Shown: piece by piece, positions 8,591 through 50,361 of the stretch | Layout: every line of letters starts with the position of its first letter | Position numbering within the stretch: position 1 is the first letter of the stretch | DNA from: Patescibacteria group bacterium | GTDB lineage: Bacteria > Patescibacteriota > Patescibacteriia > Patescibacteriales > UBA12465 | Reading direction: 5' to 3' | DNA length: 64,000 bases | NCBI GenBank assembly: GCA_041651355.1 | Contig: JBAZJK010000001.1 | Location: forward strand, 549,883-613,882 | Translations under genes and position numbers: made by a program | Notes under the pieces: generated by a model | The model's database searches: none | What the model was told of the DNA's origin: nothing | The model's input: the letters and a program-made list of their open reading frames with translations, nothing else

Positions 8591-9373
8591 TTAGTAAACC
8601 TTTAAAATAATCAGCTCATCAGATTGATTTTTAATTTTAAAGAAATTAGTGGAAGGCCACTGCGTGCCTTCCCAAGAGTCGACACTACTGCCATCCTTGT
8701 AGAAACAGGTGAAACTGGCATTCGGGTTACGGAACCCATAACGCTTTTTGCAGCCGATTTCTATCCAACCTGATGTTTCGCCTTTTTTGAGGCGAAGCTC
8801 ATAGGTGCCTGGTTCATGGAAGCCGGCGTAGCGCGAATGAGAAAATTCCTCGGCATTATGTTCCGGATTAGCAGGTTCGGGTGAGGATAACTTTTCTTCC
8901 CATCTTTCCTTGTCCCATTTTTCTTTAAACTCGACCTCCACTTTGGCTGCGCCCTCAACATCACCGGCAGCTAAACGCTTCCGGTATTCTTTGAGCATTT
9001 CTTCACCATGTTGGCCTTTATAGGCTTCCCAGGTAATATCGGTTTTCAGGCCAGTTGAGTCGGCCTGTTTAGCGATAAAGAAATCGGTTCTGGCCTTGAA
9101 CCAAGGCATTGACTTGTAAGTCATCGGCATCTGAGTCTGGATCAGAAAGACCACTACCACCGCTATAAGCGCGATGGTAATCATCTTGGCGAGGGTTTTG
9201 GTCCGCTCAAACTCTTTCAGTCGAGCTACAACATAAATTACCAGAAGGCCGGCAAATATCAGGCCGAATGACCAGCCGGTCAGAAAGCTGACCAAGAGAG
9301 CCACCAGGAAATCGATGGCTAAGAAAGCCACAATTCCTACTCCTTTACTACTATTACTATTATTTGTTGGCAT
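8591..9373 (-). CDS. hypothetical membrane protein (3 N-terminal TM segments plus C-terminal soluble domain)
   Basis: 260-aa ORF with an ATG start. No motif recognised. It is separated by 33 nt from the upstream 402-aa ORF on the same strand. Confidence 0.55.
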   Translation of the reverse strand: MPTNNSNSSKGVGIVAFLAIDFLVALLVSFLTGWSFGLIFAGLLVIYVVARLKEFERTKTLAKMITIALIAVVVVFLIQTQMPMTYKSMPWFKARTDFFIAKQADSTGLKTDITWEAYKGQHGEEMLKEYRKRLAAGDVEGAAKVEVEFKEKWDKERWEEKLSSPEPANPEHNAEEFSHSRYAGFHEPGTYELRLKKGETSGWIEIGCKKRYGFRNPNASFTCFYKDGSSVDSWEGTQWPSTNFFKIKNQSDELIILKVY

Positions 9374-9406
9374 GATTCTGAATTTTTTTTGTTTTTTACA
9401 ATTTAG

Positions 9407-10615: not shown

Positions 10616-10705
10616 TTTTTATTTCTCCTATATTTGTTTTTTATTGATTTAATTGTCAAAGAGCAGTTTTTGCCAGACACGCCAACTACTCATTTATTAG
10701 CTATA

Positions 10706-10734
10706 ATTATAGCATATTTATCATTTTCTGTCAA
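10706..10734 (-). promoter_or_regulatory. sigma70-like promoter TTGACA-17-TATAAT for the 402-aa/260-aa gene pair
   Basis: Plus-strand tgtcaa at 10729-10734 and attata at 10706-10711, which is a perfect consensus on the minus strand with a 17-nt spacer. Confidence 0.6.
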
Positions 10735-10833
10735 TATTATAAACCAACCAACAAAATAACCGAGATAACTATTTAATTTATGATAATATTTGGCTAATAT
10801 TAATCAATAAATTTTAATAAACCGTACAATCTA

Positions 10834-10862
10834 TTGACAGCTTACCGATATTTTGATTTAAT
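10834..10862 (+). promoter_or_regulatory. sigma70-like promoter TTGACA-17-TTTAAT for the 145-aa ORF
   Basis: TTGACA at 10834-10839 and TTTAAT at 10857-10862, about 50 nt upstream of ATG 10914. Confidence 0.45.
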
Positions 10863-10913
10863 GAGACCACTCTCTTTACAAATTAGCAACCCAAAAAATA
10901 AAAAAGGATCACC

Positions 10914-11351
10914 ATGGTAAAAAAAAGAAAAAGATCACAAACGGCTAAGCCGAGCCTGAAAGTCGTGCTTTTCTCTAACTATCATTTTGCGGACCCTTGG
11001 TTCCTGAATGAGTTCCGGCCTCAGCTAGAGAAAGAACGCCAAGGACCGGTCGAAATGATTTGCTTCCATGATTACCTAAATGGTAATTGTGAAGAATTCT
11101 ACCGCGAAACTTCAGGCGCCAGCCTATTACTCACTGGCCGAGAAAATTTTGACTGGCAACGCGATGATTATCTCAGCCGCCTGCAAGCCGAAGAAGAATT
11201 GTACACCCTGGTAGCCGAGGCCAAAAGACGCAACCCAAACCTCTTGGTCATGTCGGTCACCAAAGATTACCGGGCCCCGGTTGACAAGATTGCGGAAAGC
11301 ATCAACGCCTGGGACGATCCCCTGGTCATACAGGCCATCAGAGAACTTTAA
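10914..11351 (+). CDS. hypothetical protein (145 aa, soluble)
   Basis: ORF with an ATG start, its own promoter and a strong terminator. No motif recognised. GC is high like the neighbouring ORFans. Confidence 0.55.
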   Translation: MVKKRKRSQTAKPSLKVVLFSNYHFADPWFLNEFRPQLEKERQGPVEMICFHDYLNGNCEEFYRETSGASLLLTGRENFDWQRDDYLSRLQAEEELYTLVAEAKRRNPNLLVMSVTKDYRAPVDKIAESINAWDDPLVIQAIREL

Positions 11352-20000: not shown

Positions 20001-21362
20001 TATCCAAACCGAATTAGTTACAGGATCGAATGCAATAGCCTCTCCGCCGCTGTTTCCGCCGGTTGAATAGGTGGCGGTAATAGAACCGTCACTAGCCTTT
20101 ACCTTGGCCACCGTATCATTCCAATTAACCACCCAGATTGAATTAGTATAAGAGTCAAAGGCCACGCCTCGAGGAGTAAAACCTAAAGAATAGGTGCCGG
20201 TAACCGAGCCATCGGATGCCAAAATCTTTGAAACACTACCCGAATTGTAATTAGTCACCCACACAGAATTTGTCGAAGAATCAAAAGCTAAACGCCGAGG
20301 GCCGGTGGCCACCGTCGAGGTTCCAATAATACCGCCCGTCTCCGAATTAATCTTGGTGACATTAGCTGAACCGCCATTGGCCACCCAGATAGAATTAGTT
20401 GAAGGATCAAATTCGACATCAGCCGGTGCGGAGCCAGCCGTATAAGAACCGATCAGAGATCCATCTTCTGAATTTATTTTTTTGACCGTGTTATTACTAC
20501 TGTTAACCACCCAAATCGAGTTAGTGTGAGAATCAAAAGCAACACCACTCCCGGGGAAATTATAGGTGCCAATTACTACCCCGGTAGCCGGATTAATCTT
20601 AGAAACTCCGCCGGAGTTTAAAACCCAGATAGAATTAGTATGGGAATCATAGGCGCTTAAACCTAAAGAAGAATTAACAGTGTAGTCATTACGAGCATTG
20701 GTATAAGTCGTCGTATTCGTCAGCTCCACACTAGCGCTATTCCCTGTTCCTGAAACGGTGCTTGAAGCAAAATTAGATCCAGCCAGATTGAAACCGGTTG
20801 TGGAGGCGGTATTATCGGTTTGAGTCGTCGAAGCGACGGCTGTCGTCATTTGCAGAGCGGTCCCGCCATTTACTATCTCAAGATTAGCATCTTTGGATTC
20901 ATATTTATTCCAATTAGATTGATCCCCGGGATGCGTAGCTAAATTAGCGCTTTGACCGCCGCCCCAGTTCACTTGATTAAAGGTATATGTGGCCGCCAAA
21001 GTAGTATGGCTGCGAAAATTGGAGACAACTAAAACTACGATCAAAATAAGAGCTAGGGTTTGCTGGCGCCAAGCTTCTTTCCGATACATCTTAAGCAGAC
21101 GGCGCTGGGCAGGAGAAAGAGAAAGATAATTTGTTTTTTTATATTTTTTAAATCTAGAATTTAATTTCAAGAATATTCTTTTCCCTTCCTTTATTAAAAT
21201 ATAGGAATAATCATCTGCCCATCTAAACATCTTTACCATAAGCATCCATAATCTGGTAATATTAATTGCTTTACCCTTAAATAAAACACTCCCCTGTCTC
21301 CATCGAGCTCCAGAGGTCTTAATCCTTGAACTTCTATTTTTTTTATATTTCTTATTAATCAT
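14064..21362 (-). CDS. giant cell-surface protein: N-terminal anchor, about 20 YVTN-type beta-propeller blades, multiple FN3-like modules
   Basis: 2,432 aa from ATG 21362, which lies 4 nt after the upstream permease stop. The track's maximal ORF starts at TTG 21389. Another in-frame ATG at 21089 sits just before the only N-terminal hydrophobic segment (LALILIVVLVVSNF). About 20 repeats of roughly 42 aa share the core D(S/P)xTNS(I/V)WVxN. Further on come roughly 95-100-aa modules of the form ..I.W.T.E.A.S.VEY......Y.......H...L..L...T.Y.F...S.D..GN, which is FN3-like. Confidence 0.85.
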   Translation of the reverse strand: MINKKYKKNRSSRIKTSGARWRQGSVLFKGKAINITRLWMLMVKMFRWADDYSYILIKEGKRIFLKLNSRFKKYKKTNYLSLSPAQRRLLKMYRKEAWRQQTLALILIVVLVVSNFRSHTTLAATYTFNQVNWGGGQSANLATHPGDQSNWNKYESKDANLEIVNGGTALQMTTAVASTTQTDNTASTTGFNLAGSNFASSTVSGTGNSASVELTNTTTYTNARNDYTVNSSLGLSAYDSHTNSIWVLNSGGVSKINPATGVVIGTYNFPGSGVAFDSHTNSIWVVNSSNNTVKKINSEDGSLIGSYTAGSAPADVEFDPSTNSIWVANGGSANVTKINSETGGIIGTSTVATGPRRLAFDSSTNSVWVTNYNSGSVSKILASDGSVTGTYSLGFTPRGVAFDSYTNSIWVVNWNDTVAKVKASDGSITATYSTGGNSGGEAIAFDPVTNSVWIGLQRITSVIKVNVETGAIRDYIGVPTTNQTAVTFEPLTNSVWISGSGTAITKITVLSGYISGPYSTGTNSNGIAADTLTNSLWVTNYGSNNVTKMNPFTGATIGTYPVGTNPLGVTFDPSTNSIWVVNAGSNNVSKINPTTGAIISTSTVAASPQRAVFDSSTNSIWVVSSGVVTQLRASDGASLGTATVGSGTSYIAFDSYTNSVWVSSVGALYKIDTATRSVTLTLAFGSYGGIAFDSLTNSIWTAEYNSGKAKKVNVTDGTYVQIGISIFYDIGVEFDPLTNTVWFTDWYYGGTIVRVNPAGGGLATYYGSVNKKGIAFDPVSNSMWFANSSGVSKLNLASTVYDAAGTYTSGPINLGSKAQSFSTLTYTTTLKSNSNITIDIRAGDSANTSDGSWTAWQTGVASGGDISTLGSHQFIQYRVNLSTSDGVFSSTLDDITINYSLYPGSQSLISSPYDTTDATNVMGSIGFTEDATLPSGTGVTFSIRTASSQGGLAGAAWYDFTDASTNCSEAEGVVYCPLSALPSELKSGGDDRFWQYKITLASAGDLTPTVSGVEIKYVVNASPEIQNITASQGSDGKVNISYDVRDPDASAGSNTPWEITPSFEYWDGSSWTSCTTLSAGATDNKDVEMEDYTTYTLTWDPKVDHNNHYLTDAKIRVKANDNEGANNISTSESNAFTLDTVNPVVDSFVLDARSDAENDITISVSDDSLDNMQMKLSNRSDLAADGVNADSGQWIAYSATKVWTFTNESPTVYYQIKDKYGNISNNGTHAVVLPTKPPNILYQDVSNTETEEWREFIAWGRVPEPPLGFKQYNIYRSTDGENFSLLPPPQTDRSTNFVLDANLDTNTVYYYRVTAEDDAGNISFYSDIISDRPDGQGGTDLTPPVISNVVISEVTAQSALITWETDEPSNSTVSYITNDSGDFTDAPNVGVSSMMDTASRLGKHSVFLNNLEAGVEYYIQVSSADPNTNTATGGLGMSFTVLAGPVISNVQSINIRNDGATVTWDTSSQGDSRVYYSLNPDFSSPASFSLGDNSTAHSVNLTGLSNGTTYYYYVKSGVAEDKNIIDGEVVYYTFTTTSDIVPPTISFNQESDITDKTETSARISWLTSELATSTIEYSTDESYSSSQTNSNLNTDHSFELTSLSKGTLYNFRLKSTDVNGNPTTSPQYSFSTPDYTDRTAPTISFNIESDLTAKTENSIRIHWTTSEYATSSVEYSEDDSYNLTASNGNSNIDHNFELTSLTKGTLYNFRLKSTDANGNATTSDSYSFTTLDNTDVTPPIITFDPEAGLSEKSETSIRISWTTNEAATSSLEYGSDLEYGSSVSNDNLNTSHSFKLTGLTKGTLYNFRLKSTDAGNNLTTSDNYTFTTEDHTDVTAPVITSVQAEQVADTSALITWTTDEGADSLVDYGTAVATYTASSTNALYNYSHSVVLSNLSVKTKYYFQVTSKDSNGNATSSSEFSFTTQDTLVAGATSTTVYVGGGATVIDKNDRVPPIISALKISDLTANRAKISWSTDETADSMVEFGVSDSYGFTSASRDGVTSHSLSLPNLFPNTSYYYRVTSADMSGNISEAKTGTFTTPTFSASELELDENKSGDQVANDSNFAEILRRTFDFIKQAAQNVSLSILESSLIEQQNSIKELAGLAPAPEVVSGPTVKTWEDMAIISWETNKKTSSLVNYSEVGVSLNDVSRAQVIGNPDVYSTDHQVILVGLKSATTYNYQLKGATVIGSSLNVSPSTFTTLSKAAKVDNYVADRLNDESASFKWSSSLPTDTSVRVTPYRNNTLSYDEARIVSDGKLTSIHEMTIDSLEPGVFYKIDLFGRDNSGKIISQTIEAFSTVNKELPFLIEQVKTSSALAAGNSLQVQTIISWDTTKLSTSKVYYRQGTSKDDNYWPSESPVDAGYTRHHLVIMTDFLPGEIYQFQVESTDSNGQKTRSKTYTVLTPRQKESVFQVILKNIEQTFGWMGGSGGE
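15865..16755 (-). repeat. three tandem roughly 297-nt coding repeats (FN3-like modules) inside the giant ORF
   Basis: Unit boundaries fall at about 16160 and 16458. A near-identical core cttgag(a/g)cggaaattata(t/c)a.(g/a)gt(g/a)cc occurs at about 15938, 16227 and 16519. The protein units are PPTISFNQESD...KGTLYNFRLKSTDVNGN, APTISFNIESD...KGTLYNFRLKSTDANGN and PPIITFDPEAG...KGTLYNFRLKSTDAGNN. Confidence 0.8.
18990..20700 (-). repeat. array of roughly 125-nt coding repeats (YVTN propeller blades) inside the giant ORF
   Basis: A recurring plus-strand core cc(a/c)a(a/g)at(t/a)gaattagt appears at about 19499, 19625, 19751, 19871, 20010, 20133, 20262, 20389, 20512 and 20630. It corresponds to the TNSIWV blade signature. 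Confidence 0.8.
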
Positions 21363-21366
21363 GTCT

Positions 21367-22557
21367 TTACTTATACCGCAAAGCTTCAAGAGGATTTAAT
21401 TTAGCGGCCCGGCGGGAAGGATATAGGCCAGTCAAGAAACCGGTTAGGGTAGAAAAACCGATGATGAATAAGACAAACCAGGCTGGACTATAGAATAAAT
21501 CGAGAGCTTGGCCGCCAAAATTCTTTGCTAAGATATTAATAACTATATTAAAAAGCTTACCGCTGACAAAACCTATAAAAACGCCGGAAATACCACCCAA
21601 AAACCCCATAATCACCGATTCCATCAAGAATAATTTAGCAACATCGATATTGCTAACACCGATAGCCCGCATGATCCCGATTTCTTGAGTCCTCTCTAAT
21701 AAAGTAATTGTCATCGTGTTAAACATACCAATAGCGGAAACAATCAAGGCAATCAAGCCAAAAATACCTAGGACGATCTGGATAACTCGGAAGATCTTCT
21801 TTGTCTGATCAATCGTATCAGAAACCGAAGATGCCAAAAAACCTTGCTTGATTATTACCTCCCGCACCGGGTTCAACTGTTCGCCATCTTCGACCCTGAC
21901 TTTAAGACTAGAATAAGCCGGCAAATTTATATCTCCTAAGGTAAGGAGCGGCACATAGAAAAAACTGGTATTATCATCATCGATAACGCCAACGACTTTA
22001 TATTCAACATTAGGGCTGACAATATTCACCTCCCCTTGCCCGCCTTCTGGAACAAATAAGTTAAGACTGACTGTCTGGCCAATCATATCTGACGCCTGGC
22101 TGAAATTAAAAATCTTAGCGCTAGCTGATGACACGATGACTTCCGGGGCATCGCTAGCTGAAAATTCTTTACCCGCCCCTAAATTCAAACCGCTCAAACG
22201 GAAAAAGGGCTTATCAACCACGAAAGCCAAGGCATCGGTCGTTTCATTACCATAGGAAATCTGACCCGACATATCGAGGGCCGGGCTAGTTTCGGCCACT
22301 CCCGGCAAGGCGTTAATCGCCGCTAAATGTTCTTTATCTAAAGAAATTAGTTCTGAAGCCGGTGATATGTCTAAAGTTAATAAGGCATCGGTAGTCGTTA
22401 TTTTATCCAAAATTATGTTTTGCAAGCCATAGCCCAAAGAAACTAAAAACAAAACCGCGCCGATGCCAACTCCCAAACCTAAAACAGTCAAAGCCGTCCG
22501 GCTAGTATTAGTACGGAAACTACGAATCGATAGAGTGACTAAATCTTGTATTTTCAT
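21367..22557 (-). CDS. ABC transporter permease, FtsX/MacB type (4 TM segments, large extracytoplasmic domain)
   Basis: 396 aa from ATG 22557, which is 1 nt after the upstream ATPase stop. The track start is a TTG at 22575. TM1 is followed by an extracytoplasmic domain of about 230 aa. The FtsX C-terminal block follows (TITLLERTQEIGIMRAIGVSN ... LYPSRRAAKLNPLEALRYK). Confidence 0.85.
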   Translation of the reverse strand: MKIQDLVTLSIRSFRTNTSRTALTVLGLGVGIGAVLFLVSLGYGLQNIILDKITTTDALLTLDISPASELISLDKEHLAAINALPGVAETSPALDMSGQISYGNETTDALAFVVDKPFFRLSGLNLGAGKEFSASDAPEVIVSSASAKIFNFSQASDMIGQTVSLNLFVPEGGQGEVNIVSPNVEYKVVGVIDDDNTSFFYVPLLTLGDINLPAYSSLKVRVEDGEQLNPVREVIIKQGFLASSVSDTIDQTKKIFRVIQIVLGIFGLIALIVSAIGMFNTMTITLLERTQEIGIMRAIGVSNIDVAKLFLMESVIMGFLGGISGVFIGFVSGKLFNIVINILAKNFGGQALDLFYSPAWFVLFIIGFSTLTGFLTGLYPSRRAAKLNPLEALRYK

Positions 22558-39825: not shown

Positions 39826-40431
39826 CTAATAGATTTGCACCTCCGTGCCCGTCGCGATCCGATCAAACAAATATTCAGCCGGACCGATTCCCAGGCGGAT
39901 ACAACCATGCGAGACTGGTTTGCCTAAATGATCACTGCCCTCACGATAAGAGTCGGGCCAGATGGGTAGTTCATGAATGCCGAACTCTCCTTTATTTAAG
40001 CCCAACCAAAAAGGCATCCATAGGCCATATTTCTTAGACCAAGCTTTTTTATACTTATTAAGTATCTTGAACTTCCCTTTCGGAGTATCCATTCCTGGCT
40101 TGCCACTAGAAATAATGAAACTCTTCAACTCTACTTCTTTAACTAAATAGAAAAGCTTTTGCTTCTTCAAATTGATCGCTAGCCTTTGCGGCAGCTTGAG
40201 TTTAGCACTTGATAAAGGGTCGTAAGCCCAATCAACTTCCAGACCATCCTTAAAACCATCTCCGTCAGTATCCGGACTATTGATATCCGTGCCGAATTTT
40301 ATCTCTAGCTCATCATCTAAACCGTCTTGATCAGAGTCAAGGGCCGCCAAGGCGGTCAAAGGAAAAAAAACCATTAACAATAATAGGCTGATGATGATAT
40401 GCCTATTTCTTTTTTGTTGATTTGAAAGCAT
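39826..40431 (-). CDS. L,D-transpeptidase (YkuD domain) with N-terminal Asp-rich calcium-binding-type repeats
   Basis: The catalytic motif is SHGCIRL. The N-terminus has DSDQDGLDDELE and DTDGDGFKDGLE (thrombospondin type-3-like). The ATG at 40431 is preferred over the track's GTG at 40437. The gene overlaps the upstream gene's 3' end. Confidence 0.85.
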   Translation of the reverse strand: MLSNQQKRNRHIIISLLLLMVFFPLTALAALDSDQDGLDDELEIKFGTDINSPDTDGDGFKDGLEVDWAYDPLSSAKLKLPQRLAINLKKQKLFYLVKEVELKSFIISSGKPGMDTPKGKFKILNKYKKAWSKKYGLWMPFWLGLNKGEFGIHELPIWPDSYREGSDHLGKPVSHGCIRLGIGPAEYLFDRIATGTEVQIY

Positions 40432-41986
40432 ATTCACAACCGCAAAATTTTTGGCGATAGAAACCTAAACTTTTAGCTAAATCCTGGGAACGGCGATAAA
40501 TATCTTGGACGGGCCAATCCCTATCTAAAAACTCCAAGCCATGCTTGGCGGCAATTTCTAAAGCAGCTTGGCGGATAAAGGCCTGGTTCTTGAAAGGACT
40601 AAAAGCCAAAGTAGTAGCAAAAACCTTGAAGCCCTTGGTTTTGGCCAAGATCGCTGTTCTTTCTAAACGATCGCTCAAACATAGTTCACAACGCTTAGCT
40701 CCTTCGGTTTCAGTCTCTAAACCCCGCACTCGGTCTCGCCAGGCTTCGTGAGCATATGGTTCGACAATCAGCGGCCAATTATTCCGAGCGGCTAATTCTT
40801 TGACATAAGACAAGCGTTTATCAAATTCTTCCTGAGAAAGAAGGTTGGGGTTATAGAAATATAAGGTTAAATCATATTGGGGTGCCAAGATCTCCTGGCT
40901 AGGATAAGCGCCACAAGGAGCGCAACAGATATGGAGCAGGAGACCTTCATGATCCGGCTTAGCTGGCAGTTTCTTCAATCTGGAAAAAGAGATAATAATC
41001 AGCATCATCAAGACGAGCAGGACAACCAAAGCTAAAAACTTTCCTTGGCTTTGGAGAAATAGGGCACTTAGCCCGAACAACAAAGAAAAAGAATAGAAAA
41101 CTACGACAGTCTGTTTTTGACTTAAGCCTAAGCTGAGTAAACGATGATGCAAGTGCTCCCGATCGGCCGATTTGAAGGGATTCTGCCTTTTAGCTAAACG
41201 GCGAATAATAGTCCAGACTAAATCTAAGACCGGCAATCCCATAACCAGCAAAGCGATGGCGATCTTCCCGCCAGAAATAATCGCCAACACGCCTAAGATA
41301 TAGCCAAGCAACAAAGAACCACCTTCACCCAAGAATATCTTGGCCGGATTAAAGTTAAGCACTAAAAAGCCAAGGCAAACCGCCGATAATATCAAAGCGG
41401 CCAAAGCAATATCCGGCTGATAATAACGAGTGGTCAGGGTAAAAAGAAAAATCACTAAGCCGCCGATAGCGCTCAAGCCTCCCACCAAGCCATCTAATCC
41501 ATCCAGGAGCTTAGTGGTATACATCATCCCCATCAGCCAGAGGAAAATCAAAACTGGGCTGGCCAAGGCCCAAGAAGATAAAAATATCCAGCCTCCGAAA
41601 GGGTTACTGATCTTTTCAATGTTGACTCCGCCGATAATCAGGATCAAGACTGCTAAAATCGGAAAGATTATCTGCCATTTAGGCGGCAGATTGTATTTAT
41701 CATCTAGGATCCCACCGATAATCAGAATGAGGGCGCCAGCGAAAAATCCCAGCCAAGGCTGATACGATAAGCCACCGCTAAGCAGTTCCGAACGCACTAG
41801 TAGTAATGTCAAAAAATAAGCGATGAATATCGCTACTCCACCCAAAAGAGGGGTGGCTAGTTTGTGGACCTTGCGCGCTCCGTCAGGCTGATCAATGATA
41901 TTGAATTTCAAGGCAATTTTCCTTACCAAAATCGTTAAGACCCAAGATAGGATAAAAGCGAAAATAGCCGGCCAAAAATAATCCAT
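40403..41986 (-). CDS. fusion ORF: polyprenyl-phosphate N-acetylhexosamine-1-phosphate transferase (GT4, MraY/WecA-like) plus C-terminal epoxyqueuosine reductase QueH (DUF208)
   Basis: 527 aa. Residues 1 to about 340 form a 10-11 TM segment GT4-like region (DDKYNLPPKWQ, LDGLDGLVGG, IFLGEGGSLLLGY). Residues 348-527 are QueH-like (LLLHICCAPCG ... YNPN ... RCELCLSDRLERTA ... TTLAFSPFK ... YRQKFCGCEY). An in-frame TTG at 40978 could alternatively start a separate queH. Confidence 0.65.
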   Translation of the reverse strand: MDYFWPAIFAFILSWVLTILVRKIALKFNIIDQPDGARKVHKLATPLLGGVAIFIAYFLTLLLVRSELLSGGLSYQPWLGFFAGALILIIGGILDDKYNLPPKWQIIFPILAVLILIIGGVNIEKISNPFGGWIFLSSWALASPVLIFLWLMGMMYTTKLLDGLDGLVGGLSAIGGLVIFLFTLTTRYYQPDIALAALILSAVCLGFLVLNFNPAKIFLGEGGSLLLGYILGVLAIISGGKIAIALLVMGLPVLDLVWTIIRRLAKRQNPFKSADREHLHHRLLSLGLSQKQTVVVFYSFSLLFGLSALFLQSQGKFLALVVLLVLMMLIIISFSRLKKLPAKPDHEGLLLHICCAPCGAYPSQEILAPQYDLTLYFYNPNLLSQEEFDKRLSYVKELAARNNWPLIVEPYAHEAWRDRVRGLETETEGAKRCELCLSDRLERTAILAKTKGFKVFATTLAFSPFKNQAFIRQAALEIAAKHGLEFLDRDWPVQDIYRRSQDLAKSLGFYRQKFCGCEYAFKSTKKK

Positions 41987-42367
41987 AAATATTTGACTCT
42001 ATTTAAAAAATCTGATAACTTATAAGCATTAATCGCAAAAAATAGTATTAACCTAAAAAATCAGAAGCATGACTGAACCGGAAGATGTAAAGAAGGGCTT
42101 AGCTGCCATCCAGATTACAAACAATCTGGAAGCCATCAACAGGAAACTGGAACAAGAAAGGAAGAAAACCTCCCCTGATCCTGACCGGATCAAAAAATTT
42201 AACTTCCAACTTTCCTGTTGCCGAAAAGGCTTGCTCAGAAAAACTTAAACCCTGGCTAAATCGGGCCATATCGCTACCACCCGACAAATCCAGGCGCGAT
42301 TAAAAAAATGAAAGGCATGAATATATAATCAAACAATTGATTTTATACTTGTGCCTTTCTTTTCGTT

Positions 42368-45064
42368 TTAGAGAGCAGGGGCTTTTTCAATCTCTACCTC
42401 GCCTCGTCCATTAATCAAGACGGCGTCACGCCTTTTCAGTTCGCCGTTGATAATCTTAACCGCGACCACATCTTCGATCCGCTCCTGGAGGAGACGGCGT
42501 AAGGGCCGGGCGCCGAATTTAGGATCATAACCTAATTTCGATAAGATTAAAACCCCCTCCCTGTCAGCCTTCAAATCTATCCCCTGCCCCTCCAGATTCT
42601 TCTTGAATTTCTTGAGCATCAACTTAGTGATAGCAAAGACATTATCTTCACTTAAAGGCTTAAAGACGATAATGCCGTCAAAACGATTAATCAATTCCGG
42701 CCGCATCACCTTATTCAACTCATTATCGATCAGATTCTGCTTAATTACAGAAATATCCGCTTTTTCTTTAATGGCTTGCTGGATATACAAAGCCCCCACG
42801 TTCGAGGTGGCGATAATGATAGATTCAGAGAAACTAATCGTTCTCCCCTGGCCATCGGTCAGACGGCCATCATCCAACATTTGCAAAAACAGGTTTAAGA
42901 TATCTGGATGCGCTTTCTCCACTTCGTCTAAGAGGACGAGGGCGAAGGGTTTCTTCCTCACCGCTTCCGTCAAATAACCGGTAATGCCGTTAACATCACC
43001 GATCATCTTCCTGACGCTATCGGCATACTGATATTCGCTCATGTCGAGCCGAATCATATAAGCTTCGTTGCCGAAATATACTTCTGAAACCGTCTTAGCT
43101 AATTCCGTCTTACCCACGCCGGTCGGACCCAAGAAAAGGAAGCTGGCAATCGGACGCTGGCTATCGCGCAGCTCGGCGCGAGCGCGGCGCAAAGCATTGG
43201 ACACTGCTTCCACAGCCTCTTCCTGACCGATCATCCTTTTATGCAGGCTCTCTTCCAACTGCAACAATTTCTGGCCTTCACTAGCGCTAATCTTATTAGC
43301 TGGGATGCCGGTCATCTCAGCGATCGCTTGGGCCACCTCTTCACGAGTACAAATCGAACGTTCCGGATCTTCCTTGGCGGCCTTAGCGGCATTGGAAGCA
43401 GCGGCTTGTAGTAAGTCTATAGCTTTAACTGGCAGGAAACGATCATGGAGATAGCGGTGGGACATATCCACGGCTGCCTCAATCGCGTCATAAGCAAAAA
43501 AGATGCCATATTTATTTTCAAACCAGGCTACCTTGCTCTCCACTATCTGAATCGCCTGGTCGGCCAATGGTTCCTTCACTCCGATCGTGCTCAGGGCTTG
43601 GCCTAAAGATCTATTCTCAATATGCTTGCTATAATTTTCCGTAGTCGCGGTCGCGATACAAAAAACATTCTGCCTCTGCACGGCTTCAGCCAAAACCTCC
43701 GAGAGGTCGAGACTACCCTCGCCGCCATCGCTGATGCCGACCAGATTTTCGATATTGGAAATATATAGGATGATATTGCCGGCCCGATTAACTTCATTGA
43801 TGGCTGTCAGCAGCCTCTCTTGAGCTTGGGTCGGAGACGAGCCGCTAACTAAAGCCGGCGAATCTATTTCCACGAGACGTTTATCTTTTAAAAACTTGGG
43901 CACATCTTCCTGGACCATAAGCTGGGCAACGCCGTCGACGATCGCTTTCTTGCCGACACCGGGCTGACCGACCAAAAGGACGCCATTATGCCCGCTAGCA
44001 AAAGCCTCAAAGATCGCTTCGATCTCTTTTTTCCGCCCGACACAAATTTCTAAACGTCCATATTTAGCAGCTAAAGTCAGGTCATGAGAAAAGTGATCTA
44101 AGGTGGGAGTGGCGACGGCCGTATAAGAACGGTTCATGCCAGAACCGGGCTTGAGCGCCGCCATCTTGCGGAACTTACGGTAGCTATCGATTAGCTGCTG
44201 GTTAACCCGGAACCAAGTGATAACATTAGCAATTTTGCTATGGTTTATTTCTAAATCAAATAATATTTCCGCCAGCATCTCATCCTTCTGATCGCAGAAC
44301 ATGAGCAAGGAAAGGACGTCGATACTGGGTAACTTCAAGCTATGCGCTTCGATAAATGATAATATCAAAGCTTCCTGCAAAGCTGGGGCTACCCGGCAAT
44401 CCGCGCTTTCTTTTAAACTAGGGTCCACTAAATGCTTCTCAACTTTCTCTACTAGCTTTTTCGCATCGACCTTAAGGCGGATAAAGACATTTTGGACATC
44501 TTTGTTCTTTAACAGAACCCGAAATAGGTGAATTGCCCTGACTTCCGGCTGGCCGAAACGGCTAGCTAAAGCATAGGCTTCCTGTAGAGCCAAGCGGCTA
44601 TCCTCGTTTAAAGCCTGGGCGACGTTATATTTATCGCTGGCATCAGTTAGCGGCTTAGGATTATCAAGCAATTCCTTAAAATATTTATAATTTATCTTCT
44701 TAGTCTTAGCTCGACGCTCGCTCCGCCGGTAGATTAAAAATAAATCAAACCACAGAGACAGCAAGAAAAATAGAACCAAGACGTGCTGTTCGCGCCAAAA
44801 AAGCAACAGCCTTTGCCAGGAATTTATTAAATGGGCGCCATATTGGTAGAACCAAAGGACCAAGCTGATCCAACCAAAGACGGCGATAGCATAGCTGATA
44901 CCATTAACCAGGCGATCTAAGCGGTTCTTAGATTTTTGCAAAGCGGCCATGAGCGGCTTCAGATTTAATTCACAATATAAAAATAAGCCGGACCACCAGC
45001 GACCATAGGCTTTAAACTGGAGAGAATCGACAAACTGTTCATTTTTATCTTTAGACTCGGCCAT
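42368..45064 (-). CDS. membrane-anchored Clp/Hsp100-family AAA+ ATPase with degenerate first nucleotide-binding domain
   Basis: 898 aa from ATG 45064, which lies 2 nt after the upstream ORF stop. The track start is a TTG at 45121. Two N-terminal TM segments are ISYAIAVFGWISLVLWFYQY and VLVLFFLLSLWFDLFLIY, followed by Clp_N-like repeats. D1 has GQPGVGKK (Walker A T to K), ILYISNIE in place of ILFIDELH, and SLGQALS in place of ALERRFQ. D2 is intact: GPTGVGKT, LVLLDEVEKAHP, IIATSN, GARPLRR. Confidence 0.8.
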   Translation of the reverse strand: MAESKDKNEQFVDSLQFKAYGRWWSGLFLYCELNLKPLMAALQKSKNRLDRLVNGISYAIAVFGWISLVLWFYQYGAHLINSWQRLLLFWREQHVLVLFFLLSLWFDLFLIYRRSERRAKTKKINYKYFKELLDNPKPLTDASDKYNVAQALNEDSRLALQEAYALASRFGQPEVRAIHLFRVLLKNKDVQNVFIRLKVDAKKLVEKVEKHLVDPSLKESADCRVAPALQEALILSFIEAHSLKLPSIDVLSLLMFCDQKDEMLAEILFDLEINHSKIANVITWFRVNQQLIDSYRKFRKMAALKPGSGMNRSYTAVATPTLDHFSHDLTLAAKYGRLEICVGRKKEIEAIFEAFASGHNGVLLVGQPGVGKKAIVDGVAQLMVQEDVPKFLKDKRLVEIDSPALVSGSSPTQAQERLLTAINEVNRAGNIILYISNIENLVGISDGGEGSLDLSEVLAEAVQRQNVFCIATATTENYSKHIENRSLGQALSTIGVKEPLADQAIQIVESKVAWFENKYGIFFAYDAIEAAVDMSHRYLHDRFLPVKAIDLLQAAASNAAKAAKEDPERSICTREEVAQAIAEMTGIPANKISASEGQKLLQLEESLHKRMIGQEEAVEAVSNALRRARAELRDSQRPIASFLFLGPTGVGKTELAKTVSEVYFGNEAYMIRLDMSEYQYADSVRKMIGDVNGITGYLTEAVRKKPFALVLLDEVEKAHPDILNLFLQMLDDGRLTDGQGRTISFSESIIIATSNVGALYIQQAIKEKADISVIKQNLIDNELNKVMRPELINRFDGIIVFKPLSEDNVFAITKLMLKKFKKNLEGQGIDLKADREGVLILSKLGYDPKFGARPLRRLLQERIEDVVAVKIINGELKRRDAVLINGRGEVEIEKAPAL

Positions 45065-45066
45065 AA

Positions 45067-45432
45067 TTATAAGAATTGCAAAATGATAGCGACTAAGAGT
45101 CCGACGGGAAATAGCAACCAAACAGCTAGCGCCAGCACGCCGATAACTAAGACGACCAGCATAGCTAGCCCGCGGTAAATTATCTGGATCAAGCGGATGA
45201 TAAAGCTGATCATGCGACCGGCGAAATCATGCTGGCCGTACATCGGCACAAAAATGTTCTTGACCCAAACCAAAAAACCCAAGGCGGCTTCTTGGTTATG
45301 CCAAAATTCGAGAACCTTCTTGGCAAAACGCCAAAAACCAAGCGTGTACCACCACAGAGGAAAATACAAAAACTCCCAGACCACCTGCAGGGAAACTTTG
45401 GCGCCGTAAGTCAAAAAATTGTGCTTAAACAT
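45067..45432 (-). CDS. hypothetical small membrane protein (121 aa, 3-4 TM segments) translationally coupled to the Clp paralog
   Basis: ORF with an ATG start. Its stop is 2 nt before the ATG of the downstream Clp-like gene. It is Trp/Phe-rich and hydrophobic. No motif recognised. Confidence 0.55.
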   Translation of the reverse strand: MFKHNFLTYGAKVSLQVVWEFLYFPLWWYTLGFWRFAKKVLEFWHNQEAALGFLVWVKNIFVPMYGQHDFAGRMISFIIRLIQIIYRGLAMLVVLVIGVLALAVWLLFPVGLLVAIILQFL

Positions 45433-45537: not shown

Positions 45538-45564
45538 TTAGCACTCAAAGCGAAAGAGTGCTAA
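45538..45564 (+). promoter_or_regulatory. CIRCE operator (HrcA binding site)
   Basis: TTAGCACTC-AAAGCGAAA-GAGTGCTAA is a perfect match to the CIRCE consensus TTAGCACTC-N9-GAGTGCTAA. It lies 5 nt after the -10 and 35 nt before the clpB ATG. Confidence 0.85.
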
Positions 45565-45598: not shown

Positions 45599-48235
45599 AT
45601 GTTTAATAAATTTACCGATAAATCACAAGAGGCGATTATCAACGCCCAAGCAATCGCTCATGAAAACGGCCAAGCCAACATTGAGGCTCTCCATATTCTT
45701 CTTTCCCTCTTGGGCCAGAACGAAAGCATCGTTCGTTCAATCCTAGAAAAGATGAAAATCGATCCGGAAATGATTGAACGCTATGCCGCCGAGGAAATAA
45801 AGAAACTACCTCGCACTAACACCCCGAAGAATCCCGGCCCCATCCAGACCGTTTCCGGAACTAACGAGACTGCCTTCATCTTAGAACGGTCTCAAAAAGA
45901 GGCTGACGGCTTAGGCGATGAGTTCATCTCGACCGAACACATCTTTTTAGCCCTGATCGGTATTCCCTCTAATGCCCAGAATATCTTGTTAAGATTCAAG
46001 GTCGCCTATGAAACGGTTAAGACTATCTTAAACGAACTTCGCGGCGGCCAGACTATCACCGATCCTTTTCCGGAAAACAAGTTCAAAGTCTTGGAAAAAT
46101 ATACTACCAACCTGACCGAACTGGCGCGCCAAGAAAAACTTGACCCGGTCATCGGGCGCGACACGGAAATCCGCCGCATCATGCAAGTTCTCTTGCGCCG
46201 CACCAAGAACAACCCGGTACTGATCGGCGAAGCTGGAACCGGCAAGACCGCCATCGTTGAGGGCTTAGCACAGAGAATCGTGGCTGGTGATGTGCCAGAA
46301 AATTTAAAAAACAAAGAAATAGTCAGTCTAGACTTAGGGGCGATGGTCGCCGGAGCTAAATTCCGCGGCGAGTTCGAGGATCGCCTGAAGGCCGTACTTA
46401 AAGAAGTTAAAAACCAGAACGGGCGCATCATACTTTTCATCGACGAATTGCATACTTTAATCGGGGCTGGCGCTTCCGAAGGCTCAATGGACGCATCCAA
46501 CATGCTTAAACCAGCCTTAGCACGTGGCGATCTCCGGACTATCGGCGCCACTACAACCAAGGAATACCAAAAATATATCGAGCGCGACGCGGCCCTAGAA
46601 AGACGCTTCCAGCCAATTTACGTATCCGAACCGAGCTTAGAGGATACGATCGATATGCTGCGCGGCTTAAAAGAGAAATATGAAGTCCATCATGGCGTCA
46701 GGATTACAGACAACGCCTTGATCGCCGCAGCTAAATTATCCCAAAGATATATTTCCGACCGCTTTCTGCCGGATAAAGCGGTTGATTTGATCGATGAAGC
46801 AACCTCTTCCCTGCGTATGGAGATAGATTCCATGCCTGATGAACTCGACCAGATCAAAAGAAAGATCAAACAGCTAGAGATTAACAAAGCCGGGCTTATC
46901 AGCCAAGAAAATAAATCCCCCAAACTTCGTGCCATCAACGCCGAACTGGCCAAGCTGAAAGAACAGGCGAGCCAGTTGGAATTGCATTGGAACAACGAAA
47001 AAAATATCATTTCCCAGATTAGAAACTCCAAGAAAGAAATTGATGACTTGAAGATTAAGGCGGAAATAATCCAGCGCCAGGGAGCTGATTTAACTGAAGT
47101 GGCTAAGATAAGATACGGTTTGATTCCTGAATTAGAACAGACCATAAAGATCCAGCAAGCTGAACTCCTGAAAATACAGAAAAAAGGACAAAGGATCCTA
47201 AAGGAAGAAGTAGATGAAGAAGACATCGCCAAGGTAGTAGCGCGCTGGACCGGAGTGCCGGTCAATAAGATGCTGGAAAACGAAATCAAAAAACTCAGTC
47301 AGGCTGAGCAAGAGTTAAGCCAGGAAGTTATCGGCCAAGATGAAGCGATCAAGGCGGTCGCTAATGCCCTGCGTCGTTCCCGCGCTGGAATCAGTGAAGA
47401 AAAAAAACCGATCGGTTCATTCATGTTCATCGGCCCTAGTGGTGTCGGCAAGACTGAACTAGCTAAGACTCTGGCTAAATTCATGTTCAACAACGAAAAC
47501 GCTTTAATCCGCCTAGATATGAGCGAATTCATGGAAAAGCACAGCGTCTCAAAATTGATCGGTTCACCTCCGGGCTACATCGGCCATGACGAAGGCGGAC
47601 AATTAACCGACAAGATAAGGCGTCACCCCTACAGCGTCATCCTCTTCGATGAGATTGAAAAAGCTCATCCCGATACTTTTAATATCCTGCTTCAAATATT
47701 GGATGACGGCCGACTGACGGATTCTAAAGGCCGTGTCGTCAACTTCAAAAACACCATCATCATCATGACTTCCAATTTAGGCAATGAGGTCATCAAACAA
47801 TATTCCATCGGTTTTAGCGACCACTCGGACCAAGAAAGGAGCCAGACTATCAGAACCGAAGAAATGAAAGAAAAAATAGACAAGATACTTAAAGAAAATT
47901 TCAAATTAGAATTCTTGAACCGGATCGATGAAATCGTGCTTTTCAAGAGCTTGAGCTCGGATGCCTTAGAAAGGATTGTTGATCTAGAACTAAGCAAGGT
48001 GGAGGCGCGCTTGAACTTGAAAAACATCCAGCTTAAAATCGGCGCTAAAGTAAAAAAATTACTAGCCGAGAAAGGCTATGATATCAGCTACGGTGCCCGA
48101 CCTCTAAAAAGAGTTATCCAAAGCCTGATTTTAGACGAACTGGCCCTAGAAATAATCGAGGGCAAGATCAATGCTGGCGATAAAGTAAGGATTGACCTGG
48201 GTGAACGGGAAAAAATTTCTCTGAAGGTGGCATAA
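45599..48235 (+). CDS. clpB: chaperone ClpB (Hsp100 disaggregase)
   Basis: 878 aa. D1 has [18 protein letters not shown] and [15 protein letters not shown] long coiled-coil M-domain follows. D2 has [28 protein letters not shown] and YGARPLKR. Confidence 0.97.
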
Positions 48236-48300: not shown

Positions 48301-48753
48301 TTATTCATAATGATCAATGATAACCATGATTGCCAAAGAAACGAGAAGCAGGTTAGTAGCCGCTAAAGCGATAAGCTTAAAGCGATTAATTCCGCTAGAA
48401 TATTTGAGCTCCCTGAAATAAGCATCCTCCAGAACGAAGTGGTTGAAAAGTCTGCACACCAGGGCGCCGGCCACGAGAGTACTGATATACAGCCAGGGCC
48501 AGGCGATCATAGGAGACCCAATGAACCAATTCACGAAATCTAGACCGCTGAAAGATATCACCGGTAGCAGGGTCGGAATGAGTACTAAGCGGTAAGCTTT
48601 GTCCCCGTCATATTCAAAAAATAAGACTAGACAAAACAAAAGCAAATTTATTATCCAGAAGGCAGCGGCGCTGAAAACCCAGCGGGTCAGAAGGAAAAAC
48701 AAGATGATCAAGCAAAAATCAGCAACTAAGGAAAAAGCGATTAATCTTTTCAT
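48301..48753 (-). CDS. hypothetical membrane protein (150 aa, 4-5 TM segments)
   Basis: Hydrophobic ORF with an ATG start. No motif recognised. Confidence 0.5.
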   Translation of the reverse strand: MKRLIAFSLVADFCLIILFFLLTRWVFSAAAFWIINLLLFCLVLFFEYDGDKAYRLVLIPTLLPVISFSGLDFVNWFIGSPMIAWPWLYISTLVAGALVCRLFNHFVLEDAYFRELKYSSGINRFKLIALAATNLLLVSLAIMVIIDHYE

Positions 48754-48840: not shown

Positions 48841-48869
48841 TTGTCTTAAAACCACAAATATATTATAAT
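48841..48869 (+). promoter_or_regulatory. sigma70-like promoter TTGTCT-17-TATAAT
   Basis: TTGTCT at 48841-48846 and TATAAT at 48864-48869. The -10 overlaps the first ATG (48868) of the track ORF, which argues that translation starts at the second ATG (48892). Confidence 0.5.
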
Positions 48870-48891
48870 GAAGGGAGTAAATAAAATAATT

Positions 48892-50361
48892 ATGAAATAT
48901 CAAAAATCCATCATCTTGGCTATTTTGTTTGTTGGCTTATGGGGATTAAGTGCCCAGGCCCAAGGAGTGATTGACCCTAATTTCAATCCTAATTACATCA
49001 TTTCAGACGAAGACCTATACCAATACAACAGCCTAAGCCTAGAAGAAATCCAAAACTTCCTTAGGAACAAGGGGAGCTACTTAGCTAATTACCAGACTTT
49101 AAATACCCACGGAACCCTGAAATCAGCGGCGGAAATAATCTATGATGCTGCTAATAATAACTTTGATTGCAGCGGCGTCGCCCTGAGCGATAGTCCGACC
49201 GAGGCAGAAAAATCTTTGAAATGCCGACACATCACCACGATTAACCCTAAATTCTTATTAGTACTGCTGCAGAAAGAAGCCAGCTTAATCGAAGACCCTA
49301 GCCCCAGCCAATCCCGGCTCGACTGGGCGACTGGTTATGGCTGCCCCGATAGCCTGGCCTGCAACCCTTATTACAAGGGCTTCGGCAAGCAAGTTAACAG
49401 TGCTTCGCTCCAATTCCTAGCCTACATGAATGAACCGCAAAATTATTCTTACAAAGCCGGACAGACCTACATCTTCAAAAATAATTACGGCAGCATTTCC
49501 AGCGATCCGGTAACGGTCACCCCCAGCAACCGGGCAACAGCTGCTTTATACAATTATACCCCGCACGTTTTCAACGGCAATTACAATTTTTATAAGATCT
49601 GGCAAAGATATTTCCCGACCAAAATCCAGCGCTACCCCGACGGTTCGCTGCTTCAGGTCAAAGGCGATAATAGCGTCTTCTTAATTGAAGGCGGAAAGAA
49701 ACGCCCATTCGCTGGCAAAGCCGTCCTCCTTTCTCAATTCAATCTTAACCAGATTATCACGGTCGACCTAGGGACTTTAGACAGCTACGCCTCCGGCACC
49801 CCGATTAAATTTCCTAACTACTCCCTGGTAAAATCACCTAAGAATAATGTCTATCTTCTAGTGGGCAAAGAGAAAAGAGGCATCGTCAGTTGGCCGGTCT
49901 TTAAGAAAATAGGTTTCAACCCGGCAGAGATAATCGATGCGACCACGGAGGAATTAGCGGCCTACCAAGATGGTCCGAACATTACTGCCACTTCCACCTA
50001 TCCCTTAGGAGCTCTACTGCAAGACACTAAAACTGGTGGCATTTATTTCGCGGAAAATGGAAACAAGGCGCCTATCTTAGATAAACAGATAATCGACTTA
50101 AAATTCAAAGGCAAAAAAATCATCAAAACCAACGATAAAGAATTAAAGAACTACAAGACGATCGACCCGATCCTTTTAGACGACGGCGCTCTGGTCAAAT
50201 CTAATTCCAACGAAACGGTCTATCTTATCTCTAATGGACAGAAAAGGCCTTTCGCCAGTCTCGAAGCTTTGAAACAGCTGGGTTATAAAGTGGAAAATAT
50301 CCTAAACATTTCTCCCCAACTTCTCTATCATTACCCACTGGGCAGTCTAATTAACAGTTAA
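48892..50361 (+). CDS. secreted repeat protein (hypothetical)
   Basis: The signal peptide is MKYQKSIILAILFVGLWGLSAQA. The C-terminal half has four degenerate repeats of about 60 aa of the form (V/I)Y(L/F)(I/L)..G.KR.(F/I)....(L/F)...G(Y/F). The maximal ORF starts at 48868. Confidence 0.6.
   Translation: MKYQKSIILAILFVGLWGLSAQAQGVIDPNFNPNYIISDEDLYQYNSLSLEEIQNFLRNKGSYLANYQTLNTHGTLKSAAEIIYDAANNNFDCSGVALSDSPTEAEKSLKCRHITTINPKFLLVLLQKEASLIEDPSPSQSRLDWATGYGCPDSLACNPYYKGFGKQVNSASLQFLAYMNEPQNYSYKAGQTYIFKNNYGSISSDPVTVTPSNRATAALYNYTPHVFNGNYNFYKIWQRYFPTKIQRYPDGSLLQVKGDNSVFLIEGGKKRPFAGKAVLLSQFNLNQIITVDLGTLDSYASGTPIKFPNYSLVKSPKNNVYLLVGKEKRGIVSWPVFKKIGFNPAEIIDATTEELAAYQDGPNITATSTYPLGALLQDTKTGGIYFAENGNKAPILDKQIIDLKFKGKKIIKTNDKELKNYKTIDPILLDDGALVKSNSNETVYLISNGQKRPFASLEALKQLGYKVENILNISPQLLYHYPLGSLINS

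Follow-up and report, generated by a model that had tools for sequence, protein, structure and literature searches.

A membrane-anchored Hsp100 paralog with a predicted pseudo-ATPase ring and a small membrane partner in Patescibacteria

A 64,000-nucleotide stretch of a Patescibacteria genome (positions 549,883 to 613,882 of contig JBAZJK010000001.1; hereafter, the window) encodes a Clp/Hsp100 paralog with a predicted membrane anchor, and its gene directly follows the gene for a small membrane protein. Across the orthologs that we surveyed, the first ATPase ring of this paralog (D1) lacks catalytic residues, the second ring (D2) retains a complete set of catalytic motifs, and the pore-loop tyrosine is missing from both rings. 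The pair could well form a Patescibacteria-specific, membrane-integrated Hsp100 remodeler with one motor ring, independent of ClpP and DnaK and acting in proteostasis or assembly at the membrane or in the envelope, but we hold this proposal tentatively. The two genes are:

45067..45432, minus strand: small membrane partner, 121 amino acids; open reading frame (ORF) ending in a TAA stop
42368..45064, minus strand: membrane-anchored Clp/Hsp100 paralog, 898 amino acids; ATG at 45064, 2 nucleotides past the stop of the partner

A first-pass annotation, made from the DNA alone, had described a 121-residue ORF ending 2 nucleotides before the ATG of an 898-residue Clp protein, and we recovered the same coordinates and spacing from the sequence. 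The two genes are translationally coupled. An alternative start for the Clp paralog, a TTG at 45121, would give a protein of 917 residues; the N-termini of orthologs align with the ATG instead. A database protein (P0001) is identical to the Clp paralog of the window, and its source is the metagenome-assembled genome of a Patescibacteria group bacterium.

We searched for homologs with the N-terminal 577 residues of the Clp paralog as the query, which returned 519 proteins. The best 120 of these are almost all 885–921 residues long (49–63% identity), and all are from Patescibacteria, namely Falkowbacteria and their relatives. In the databases, the best homologs have only generic names (“ATP-dependent Clp protease ATP-binding subunit/ClpC”), and the label of ClpC or Clp protease subunit is probably wrong. 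When a profile built from residues 1–150 was searched against 1.84 billion representatives, just 57 proteins matched, so the anchor module is narrowly distributed. Many of the GTDB records with the locus (L002, L004, L005, and others) bear the title “uncultured Gammaproteobacteria bacterium,” and L076 bears that of “Planctomycetota.” Given the gene content, these titles are almost certainly placeholder labels or mislabeled bins.

The gene pair is widespread as well. Using a back-translated motif search, we found loci with the partner in at least 569 GTDB species representatives. In 79 of the 80 best loci, the Clp paralog is directly after the partner on the same strand, and the contig of the 80th ends 150 nucleotides past the small gene. 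The spacing between the two genes is mostly 1–12 nucleotides, or they overlap slightly. Five contexts of greater divergence (L081, L083, L088, L089, and L091) have the pair too. Hence the pair is conserved in all 79 testable species loci and in these five contexts besides.

To describe the two ATPase rings across the family, we surveyed motifs in 190 sequences, of which 119 were database homologs and 71 came from GTDB species representatives (the window and 70 loci). In the window, the motifs are as follows:

43946-43969, minus strand: D1 Walker A, GQPGVGKK, residues 366-373
43748-43771, minus strand: D1 Walker B, ILYISNIE, residues 432-439
43589-43609, minus strand: D1 arginine-finger region, SLGQALS, residues 486-492
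43814-43846, minus strand: D1 pore loop, lost; KFRGEFE of the neighboring ClpB is replaced by SS-PTQAQE
43106-43129, minus strand: D2 Walker A, GPTGVGKT
42908-42937, minus strand: D2 Walker B, VLLDEVEKAH
42974-43000, minus strand: D2 pore loop, GDVNGITGY, shortened and without tyrosine

D2 of the window also contains ATSN, LINRFDG, and GARPLRR, and every motif string that the first-pass annotation quoted for either ring was located in the Clp paralog.

No ortholog has the Walker B glutamate in D1 (0/190): 183 have asparagine at this position and 7 have aspartate. The arginine-finger pair (RR) is likewise absent from D1 in all 190. The position of the Walker B aspartate is not constant: most sequences have D, and the others have A, N, S, K, P, E, or R. 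The last residue of Walker A varies as well, with most sequences having S or T and a minority, the window among them, having K, R, N, or E. So the loss of catalytic residues from D1 is shared by the orthologs and not peculiar to this strain. Despite its dead motifs, D1 has kept its fold and its lid (AAA_lid_9, 58.6 bits). Mean pairwise identity among 115 orthologs is 72% for the large domain of D1 and 85% for D2, as compared to 57% for Clp_N and 50% for the membrane hairpin. Judging by these sequences, D1 is a selected pseudo-ATPase that is unable to hydrolyze ATP, rather than a decaying domain. Because it is catalytically dead yet strongly conserved, D1 is most likely a structural or assembly ring. 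Nucleotide binding by D1 usually supports the assembly of Hsp100 proteins.

D2 contains Walker A and Walker B in all 190 orthologs. All five D2 motifs were tabulated for the 119 database orthologs, and sensor-1 (TSN), the arginine finger (NRFDG), and sensor-2 (GARP[LM]RR) are present in every one; the arginine finger and sensor-2 are also present in the 71/71 locus sequences. If the motifs are a guide, D2 is the only possible motor in the protein. The earlier description of D2 as fully canonical holds for catalysis but not for the pore loop, which lacks the tyrosine and is 5 residues shorter. In a HMMER alignment, PGYV in the D2 pore loop of ClpB is opposite NGIT in the window and DGTL in the family consensus, and the 5-residue deletion follows. 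There is a conserved tyrosine in D2 of this family, but it corresponds to the tyrosine of GGY-LTEAV in ClpB and not to the pore tyrosine. Aromatic residues are absent from the D2 pore loop in all 190 orthologs, and the D1 pore loop is lost in every one. To our knowledge, an aromatic pore-loop residue grips the substrate in every characterized threading motor of the Hsp100, FtsH, and Msp1 types. Because the pore tyrosine is missing from both D1 and D2, neither ring of the Clp paralog has the substrate-gripping residue.

The domain order of the paralog, from the N-terminus, is:

44975..45034, minus strand: N-terminal three-stranded sheet, residues 11-30 (AlphaFold2 strands 11-14, 19-24, and 27-30)
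44729..44911, minus strand: membrane hairpin, with transmembrane segment TM1 at about residues 52-74, an outer loop of 18 residues, and TM2 at about residues 93-112 (hydropathy, AlphaFold2, and lysine plus arginine in the flanks)
44156..44623, minus strand: Clp_N-type N-domain, residues 148-303 (Pfam, alignment to ClpB, and a helical AlphaFold2 domain with pLDDT of about 90)
43355..44047, minus strand: D1 pseudo-ATPase module, residues 340-570, with no M-domain insertion
42386..43267, minus strand: D2 motor module and D2-small domain, residues 600-893, with complete catalytic motifs

In the AlphaFold2 model (mean predicted local distance difference test score, or pLDDT, of 85.1), these appear as the sheet, two long helices, Clp_N, D1, and D2. 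The top fold matches from Foldseek are ClpC and ClpB, with ClpC the best overall. Pfam identifies AAA_2 (171 bits) and ClpB_D2-small (69 bits) as well as the D1 lid. The match to Clp_N (PF02861) is weak, at 22.0 bits against a cut-off of 20.7; this region also aligns with the N-domain of ClpB. Scores from the NCBIfam models are far below their cut-offs, both for ClpB (TIGR03346; 568 versus 1232) and for ClpA (485 versus 993), and the protein is also far below the cut-offs for ClpV, ClpK, and ClpG. In a pairwise alignment, it is 37% identical to the ClpB that is encoded next to it. D2 is closest to D2 of E. coli ClpB (315 bits, versus 281 bits for ClpC).

The two N-terminal transmembrane segments and the following Clp_N domain, both of which had been noticed in the first-pass annotation, are borne out by hydropathy and by AlphaFold2, which places helices at residues 37-81 and 95-120, across the hydrophobic segments. 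Lysine and arginine point the same way: the mean number of these residues is 9.3 before TM1, 2.1 in the 18-residue loop, and 6.8 after TM2. Because the positive charges are concentrated outside of the loop, the anchor is likely an N-in/C-in hairpin with the AAA+ body in the cytoplasm.

The lack of both a long M-domain and a ClpP-docking loop, also claimed earlier, agrees with alignments to E. coli ClpB, to ClpC, and to the neighboring ClpB. About 118 alignment columns of the neighboring ClpB, corresponding to the M-domain, are unmatched in the paralog. For the IGF/LGF loop, we looked for any [ILV]G[FL] tripeptide between TSN and NRFD of D2 and found none. This region matches ClpB residue for residue, apart from two single-residue gaps in ClpB, and it does not have the insertion of about 11 residues that follows sensor-1 in ClpC. 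Also, Peptidase_M41 is absent from the Pfam results for this protein.

The small partner is uniform in length, with 115 database homologs that are all about 115–130 residues. No Pfam domain was found among the 115, and a search with 64 members returned nothing above noise; the partner had no match in NCBIfam or PADLOC, and Foldseek against the PDB gave nothing with E < 3. AlphaFold2 predicts, with a pLDDT of 93.7, two long helices (6-51 and 70-120) that are linked by a conserved loop. Residues 13-35 and 86-118 are hydrophobic. The first-pass annotation called this protein polytopic. The two hydrophobic stretches support a membrane protein, but the model is of a helical hairpin and is not clearly polytopic. 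The conserved middle of the partner is rich in lysine and arginine (motifs YFPxWWYxxG and WxKNIFVPMYGQxDxxGRxISF) and is probably cytoplasmic. We considered whether the partner is a duplicate of the membrane anchor of the Clp paralog and rejected this, as a profile-profile comparison showed no similarity. We also dropped the idea that a conserved aspartate in TM2 of the Clp paralog (D107) tracks the partner: it is missing in several lineages that have the partner and is present in one protein that lacks D2.

Distant members of the family illuminate the N-terminus. At the position of the cysteine-less sheet in the window, these have a DnaJ-type zinc ribbon (CxxCxGxG ... CxxCxG), and the sheet appears, from its sequence and its predicted structure, to be a remnant of this ribbon. 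The role of the CxxCxGxG zinc centers in DnaJ is established, and the ribbon in the distant members hints at binding of non-native proteins.

Some members of the family lack D2. These proteins are 583–631 residues long and contain the zinc ribbon, the transmembrane hairpin, Clp_N, and the dead D1, and they end at the linker between D1 and D2 (P0259, P0260, P0262, P0268, P0271, P0284, and P0287; loci L085–L087, L092, and L093). Because they are in the same genomic slot, in which the gene of the family is followed by a glycosyltransferase gene (GT4, described below) and then by L21-recR-ybaB-dnaB, they are positional orthologs. The small partner is absent upstream of the D2-less orthologs in all five loci that we examined, and GT4 is downstream in four of the five (L086, L087, L092, and L093). 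In L093, dnaK ... dnaJ-lepB is upstream. In L087, the tail of an ORF (35 residues) is upstream, and we read it as the 3′ end of a dnaJ-like gene. From their domain content, the D2-less proteins look like membrane-anchored pseudo-ATPase scaffolds. There is also a full-length ortholog whose D2 is dead (P0258; L089/L090, 5001-7736): its Walker B is LLNEFE, it has no arginine finger, and its sensor-2 is GVNLLRT. Its locus has kept both the partner upstream and GT4 downstream. Overall, the partner tracks the D2 module, being present with D2 and absent from the D2-less loci, and the module of anchor, Clp_N, and pseudo-D1 tracks GT4. The existence of D2-less and D2-dead orthologs implies that part of the core function needs no motor or ATP hydrolysis.

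Downstream of the Clp paralog in the window is:

40403..41986, minus strand: WecA/TagO-like polyprenyl-phosphate N-acetylglucosamine-1-phosphate transferase (GT4) fused to QueH (Pfam Glycos_transf_4 and QueH)

GT4 is downstream of the Clp paralog in all 70 of the Falkowbacteria-like loci, and a YkuD L,D-transpeptidase and a beta-propeller lipoprotein are usually next. The triad of partner, Clp paralog, and GT4 persists amid differing surroundings in L081, L083, L089, and L091. In L081, the order is mraZ-rsmH-ftsL-[triad]-L21-recR-ybaB-dnaB, and in L091, MltG/YceG is after the triad. There are exceptions: in L088, the pair is found without GT4 and genes resembling pilins of type IV secretion systems adjoin it, and the D2-less form in L085 lacks GT4 as well. 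GT4 is 57–60% identical across lineages whose Clp-like proteins share only about 27% identity. GT4 is the most deeply conserved neighbor of the Clp paralog.

In the window, GT4-QueH is a single ORF of 527 residues, with GT4 at residues 1-340 and the epoxyqueuosine reductase QueH at residues 349-521. Related loci have GT4 and QueH either fused (about 520–540 residues) or as separate genes (about 350 and about 190 residues), and this pairing of envelope and tRNA-modification functions is odd. GT4 from the window scores 137.7 bits with the NCBIfam model for wecA and 66.6 bits with that for mraY. We rejected the idea that the downstream GT4 is MraY, as these proteins score 57–67 bits for mraY (cut-off of 192) versus 111–138 bits for wecA. 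GT4 is closer to WecA/TagO, yet it is below the cut-offs of both models. Its motif DRxHLHHRL is presumably of the WecA type.

GT4 mostly starts 4 nucleotides past the stop of the Clp paralog, while in the window there is a gap of 382 nucleotides. This gap contains a convergent ORF of 59 residues at 42069-42248 on the plus strand (MTEPEDVKKGLAAIQITNNLEAINRKLEQERKK...), and there are terminator-like hairpins at 42197-42158, between the Clp paralog and GT4. Several related loci have an ORF of 100–124 residues on the minus strand at the gap between Clp and GT4, which is apparently charged and helical. In L081, which is on a Magasanikbacteria-like contig, the region at 1808-11263 has ftsI and a Mur ligase upstream of mraZ and is a rearranged division and cell wall (dcw) cluster. 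The triad of L081 occupies the slot in this cluster that normally holds ftsI ... mraY.

On the other side of the pair is a canonical, divergently transcribed clpB with a CIRCE (controlling inverted repeat of chaperone expression) operator:

45599..48235, plus strand: canonical clpB, 878 amino acids, with M-domain; TIGR03346, 1194 bits; divergent from the pair
45538-45564: perfect CIRCE operator, TTAGCACTC-N9-GAGTGCTAA, directly downstream of the clpB promoter
TTGACA at 45505 and TATATT ending at 45533, plus strand: clpB promoter, TTGACA-17-TATATT
45471-45463, minus strand: candidate -10 box of the partner-Clp operon, TGGTATAAT; this is our own reading of the sequence and was absent from the scan output

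The TIGR03346 match, the promoter, and the perfect operator confirm that a normal, CIRCE-regulated clpB lies divergently beside the pair, as had been reported. The Clp paralog is clearly distinct from the housekeeping ClpB encoded there, so that, as the first-pass annotation also maintained, this copy is not the housekeeping disaggregase. Divergent clpB is upstream in 52 of the 59 related loci with enough flanking sequence; it is directly adjacent in 40 of the loci, and 24 have a CIRCE-like element. This arrangement is typical of the Falkowbacteria-like subclade. CIRCE is about 70 nucleotides upstream of the likely -10 box of the pair. We considered whether CIRCE also controls the pair, which is possible but unsupported, as CIRCE is part of the clpB promoter region.

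Other genes in the window include two without Pfam matches just beyond clpB: a hydrophobic protein of 150 residues (48301-48753, minus strand) and a protein of 497 residues whose hydrophobic N-terminus resembles a signal sequence or an anchor (48868-50361, plus strand). A giant ORF of 2441 residues with a TTG start is at 14064-21389, on the minus strand.

How might the Clp paralog work? In the proposal that we favor, a ClpB-like ancestor gave rise to a membrane-integrated Hsp100 machine that is specific to Patescibacteria. The two-helix anchor would hold the cytoplasmic AAA+ body at the inner membrane face. The protein would form a hexamer with its N-domain and D1 face directed at the membrane. 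The small protein would join it in fixed stoichiometry as a subunit in the membrane, either cooperating with the D2 motor or regulating it. The machine would use ATP to remodel or dislodge membrane or envelope proteins, or to aid their assembly, without proteolysis and independently of DnaK. The prime candidate for a client would be the adjacent WecA/TagO-type transferase, or else the surrounding envelope machinery. With no pore-loop tyrosine in either ring, the substrate must be engaged in a non-canonical way; contact might be made by the short polar loops, the Clp_N domain, the remnant of the zinc ribbon, or the membrane subunits. A role at the membrane or in the envelope is supported by the independent linkage to clpB and to dnaK/dnaJ together with the constant linkage to envelope genes.

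Several observations weigh against this proposal. The pore tyrosine, whose presence is the best predictor of unfoldase activity, is gone from both rings in all of the orthologs, so processive threading is not assured. The D2-less orthologs and the D2-dead ortholog hold the same locus as the full-length proteins. In the strain of the window, D1 has GKK in Walker A and SN in Walker B, and these residues suggest that it may bind no nucleotide. Heat-shock co-regulation of the pair is unsupported, with CIRCE in the promoter of clpB and not in that of the pair. Finally, every member of the family is from an uncultivated organism.

The first-pass annotation went further than we do and suggested a two-component, membrane-embedded unfoldase or extractase with a single active ring. 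Much of this description stands, as the anchor, the dead D1, the motif-complete D2, the obligatory partner, and the independence from ClpP and from an M-domain are supported by at least 190 orthologs; it is the mode of action that we doubt. In the classical form of this model, the machine would pull membrane proteins processively through the central channel, in at D1 and out at D2, like FtsH, Msp1/ATAD1, or Pex1/Pex6. The N-terminal anchor does point the entry face towards the membrane, and Hsp100 proteins are known to thread substrates from D1 to D2, which here would be away from the membrane. A dead D1 with an active D2 is also the arrangement of Pex1/Pex6, which is tethered to the membrane by a small membrane protein (for a review, see PMC9265785). 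But no aromatic pore-loop residue is found in either ring of any ortholog, the D2 loop has been shortened, some orthologs have no D2, and there is neither a protease domain nor a ClpP loop to dispose of the substrate. Threading in the style of FtsH or Msp1/ATAD1 is further weakened by the D2-dead ortholog and by the linkage to GT4, which had not been considered. We think that a classical extractase is quite unlikely.

The linkage to GT4 instead raises the possibility of a dedicated regulator or scaffold for this transferase. The zinc ribbon, anchor, Clp_N, and pseudo-D1 would bind the polytopic GT4 or its lipid-carrier pathway, D2 and the partner would, in the proteins that have them, add an ATP-gated switch, and there would be no general quality control. 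GT4 is the deepest linkage of the Clp paralog, as it holds in the 70/70 loci, in L081, L083, L089, and L091, and in four of five D2-less loci, and GT4 is far better conserved across lineages than the Clp-like proteins beside it. A scaffold or a switch would also fit with the loss of the pore loops and with the existence of D2-less forms. On the other hand, the pair in L088 and the D2-less form in L085 do without GT4, and in the window a gap of 382 nucleotides and a terminator-like hairpin lie between the Clp paralog and GT4. The block from the Clp-like gene and GT4 through L21-recR-ybaB-dnaB might be kept by slow genome rearrangement alone. The 85% conservation of D2, with every catalytic motif, argues that real mechanical work is done, and our literature searches yielded no precedent for such a role. 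We view a dedicated GT4 regulator as possible but doubtful. A related scheme, which strikes us as rather unlikely, is that of a non-threading membrane Hsp100 in which D2-driven switching with the partner assembles, gates, or recycles a complex for phosphoglycosyl transfer or envelope synthesis; this would be lineage-specific, with no counterpart in the model bacteria.

An export motor or a recycler of envelope structures, comparable to HSP101 on PTEX or to the recycling of sheaths by ClpV, seems very improbable. A ring of 12 anchor helices and the partner helices, coaxial with the AAA+ pore, could geometrically form a conduit, and genes resembling secretion-system pilins adjoin the pair in L088. 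However, with an N-terminal anchor, canonical movement from D1 to D2 leads off the membrane; the neighborhood contains no conserved secretion genes; and the pore loops are lost. Lastly, the gene might be a strain-specific decaying pseudogene, an annotation artifact, or half of a mobile anti-phage defense pair like DolB. The Walker A (GKK) and Walker B (SN) of D1 in the window are more degenerate than the family consensus of GK[S/T] and DN, and the PADLOC models for DolB and PDC-M37B match the D2 region with 104–113 bits. But these matches are confined to the generic AAA_2 domain (which Pfam scores at 171 bits), and the partner has no match in PADLOC. The 898-residue ORF is intact, there are hundreds of orthologs with a shared design under purifying selection, and the locus keeps a fixed position beside core genes (clpB, dcw genes, L21, recR, and dnaB). 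Conservation and synteny effectively refute these explanations.

We return to the proposed membrane-integrated remodeler and compare it to known systems. It resembles ClpB/Hsp104 in its domain order (Clp_N, D1, D2, and D2-small), in the similarity of its D2, in having no ClpP loop, and in its genomic association with clpB or, in other lineages, with dnaK/dnaJ. Unlike ClpB/Hsp104, it has a membrane anchor, a dead D1, no pore tyrosines, an obligatory small membrane partner, and a TIGR03346 score below the cut-off, and because there is no M-domain, it has no route for coupling to DnaK. The compact junction between D1 and D2 is reminiscent of ClpA, and a single alignment stretch covers positions 7-732 of the 734 in TIGR02639. 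The N-terminal zinc ribbon of its distant relatives is reminiscent of ClpE and ClpX. It differs from ClpA, ClpC, and ClpE in lacking the IGF/LGF loop, in its dead D1 and membrane anchor, and in its ClpA score below the cut-off. More broadly, its fold places it in the Clp/Hsp100 superfamily, but it lacks two features that all characterized class I members share: a D1 capable of catalysis, and pore-1 loops with aromatic residues (KYRGEFE in D1 and GYVG in D2).

By analogy, the Clp paralog and its partner most resemble Pex1/Pex6-Pex15 and Torsin-LAP1. As in Pex1/Pex6 with Pex15/PEX26, there is an inactive D1, a motor D2, and a small membrane protein as the partner (PMC9265785). But Pex1/Pex6 belong to the classical AAA clade, form heterohexamers, rely on a separate tail-anchored tether, where the Clp paralog carries its own anchor, and have kept the aromatic residues in the D2 pore loop. 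Torsins, which depend on the membrane-protein cofactors LAP1 and LULL1, are related to the D2 of Hsp100, lack aromatic pore loops, and are located at the membrane (PMC5425593, PMC7175109). They differ in that they form a single ring in the lumen of the endoplasmic reticulum and their arginine finger is supplied by the cofactor, while the Clp paralog has kept NRFDG, pseudo-D1, and Clp_N. FtsH and Msp1/ATAD1 share an N-terminal anchor that presents the AAA+ entry face to the membrane, but these extractors are built on one ring of the classical AAA type whose pore loops are aromatic, FtsH carries a protease domain as well, and the Clp paralog has none of this. HSP101 of Plasmodium is an Hsp100 within a membrane complex, PTEX (PMC7355975). 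However, HSP101 is a soluble protein with an M-domain in which both rings are active, and it docks its D2 face to the EXP2 pore and pushes substrates outwards, whereas the Clp paralog is anchored by its N-terminus.

Membrane-tethered ClpB- or ClpC-like proteins were thought to be uncharacterized when this locus was first annotated, and we agree: full-text literature searches for membrane-anchored Hsp100 proteins or for Clp proteins of the Candidate Phyla Radiation gave nothing on point, and the names in the databases are generic.

Hsp100 proteins are the textbook case of soluble threading motors, and a widely conserved, membrane-embedded branch with one motor ring, no pore tyrosines, and a dedicated membrane subunit on which it depends would extend the known roles of this fold. 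The Clp-partner pair would also give a bacterial counterpart to Pex1/6-Pex15 and Torsin-LAP1. The family offers a series of variants (full-length, D2-dead, and D2-less) within one conserved and unusual architecture whose function we infer, and the D2-less, partner-less orthologs are a natural experiment that separates the role of the scaffold from that of the motor. Since the minimal genomes of Patescibacteria have kept this protein of about 900 residues in at least several hundred species, beside clpB, dnaK/dnaJ, and genes of the cell envelope, it is likely to be physiologically important.

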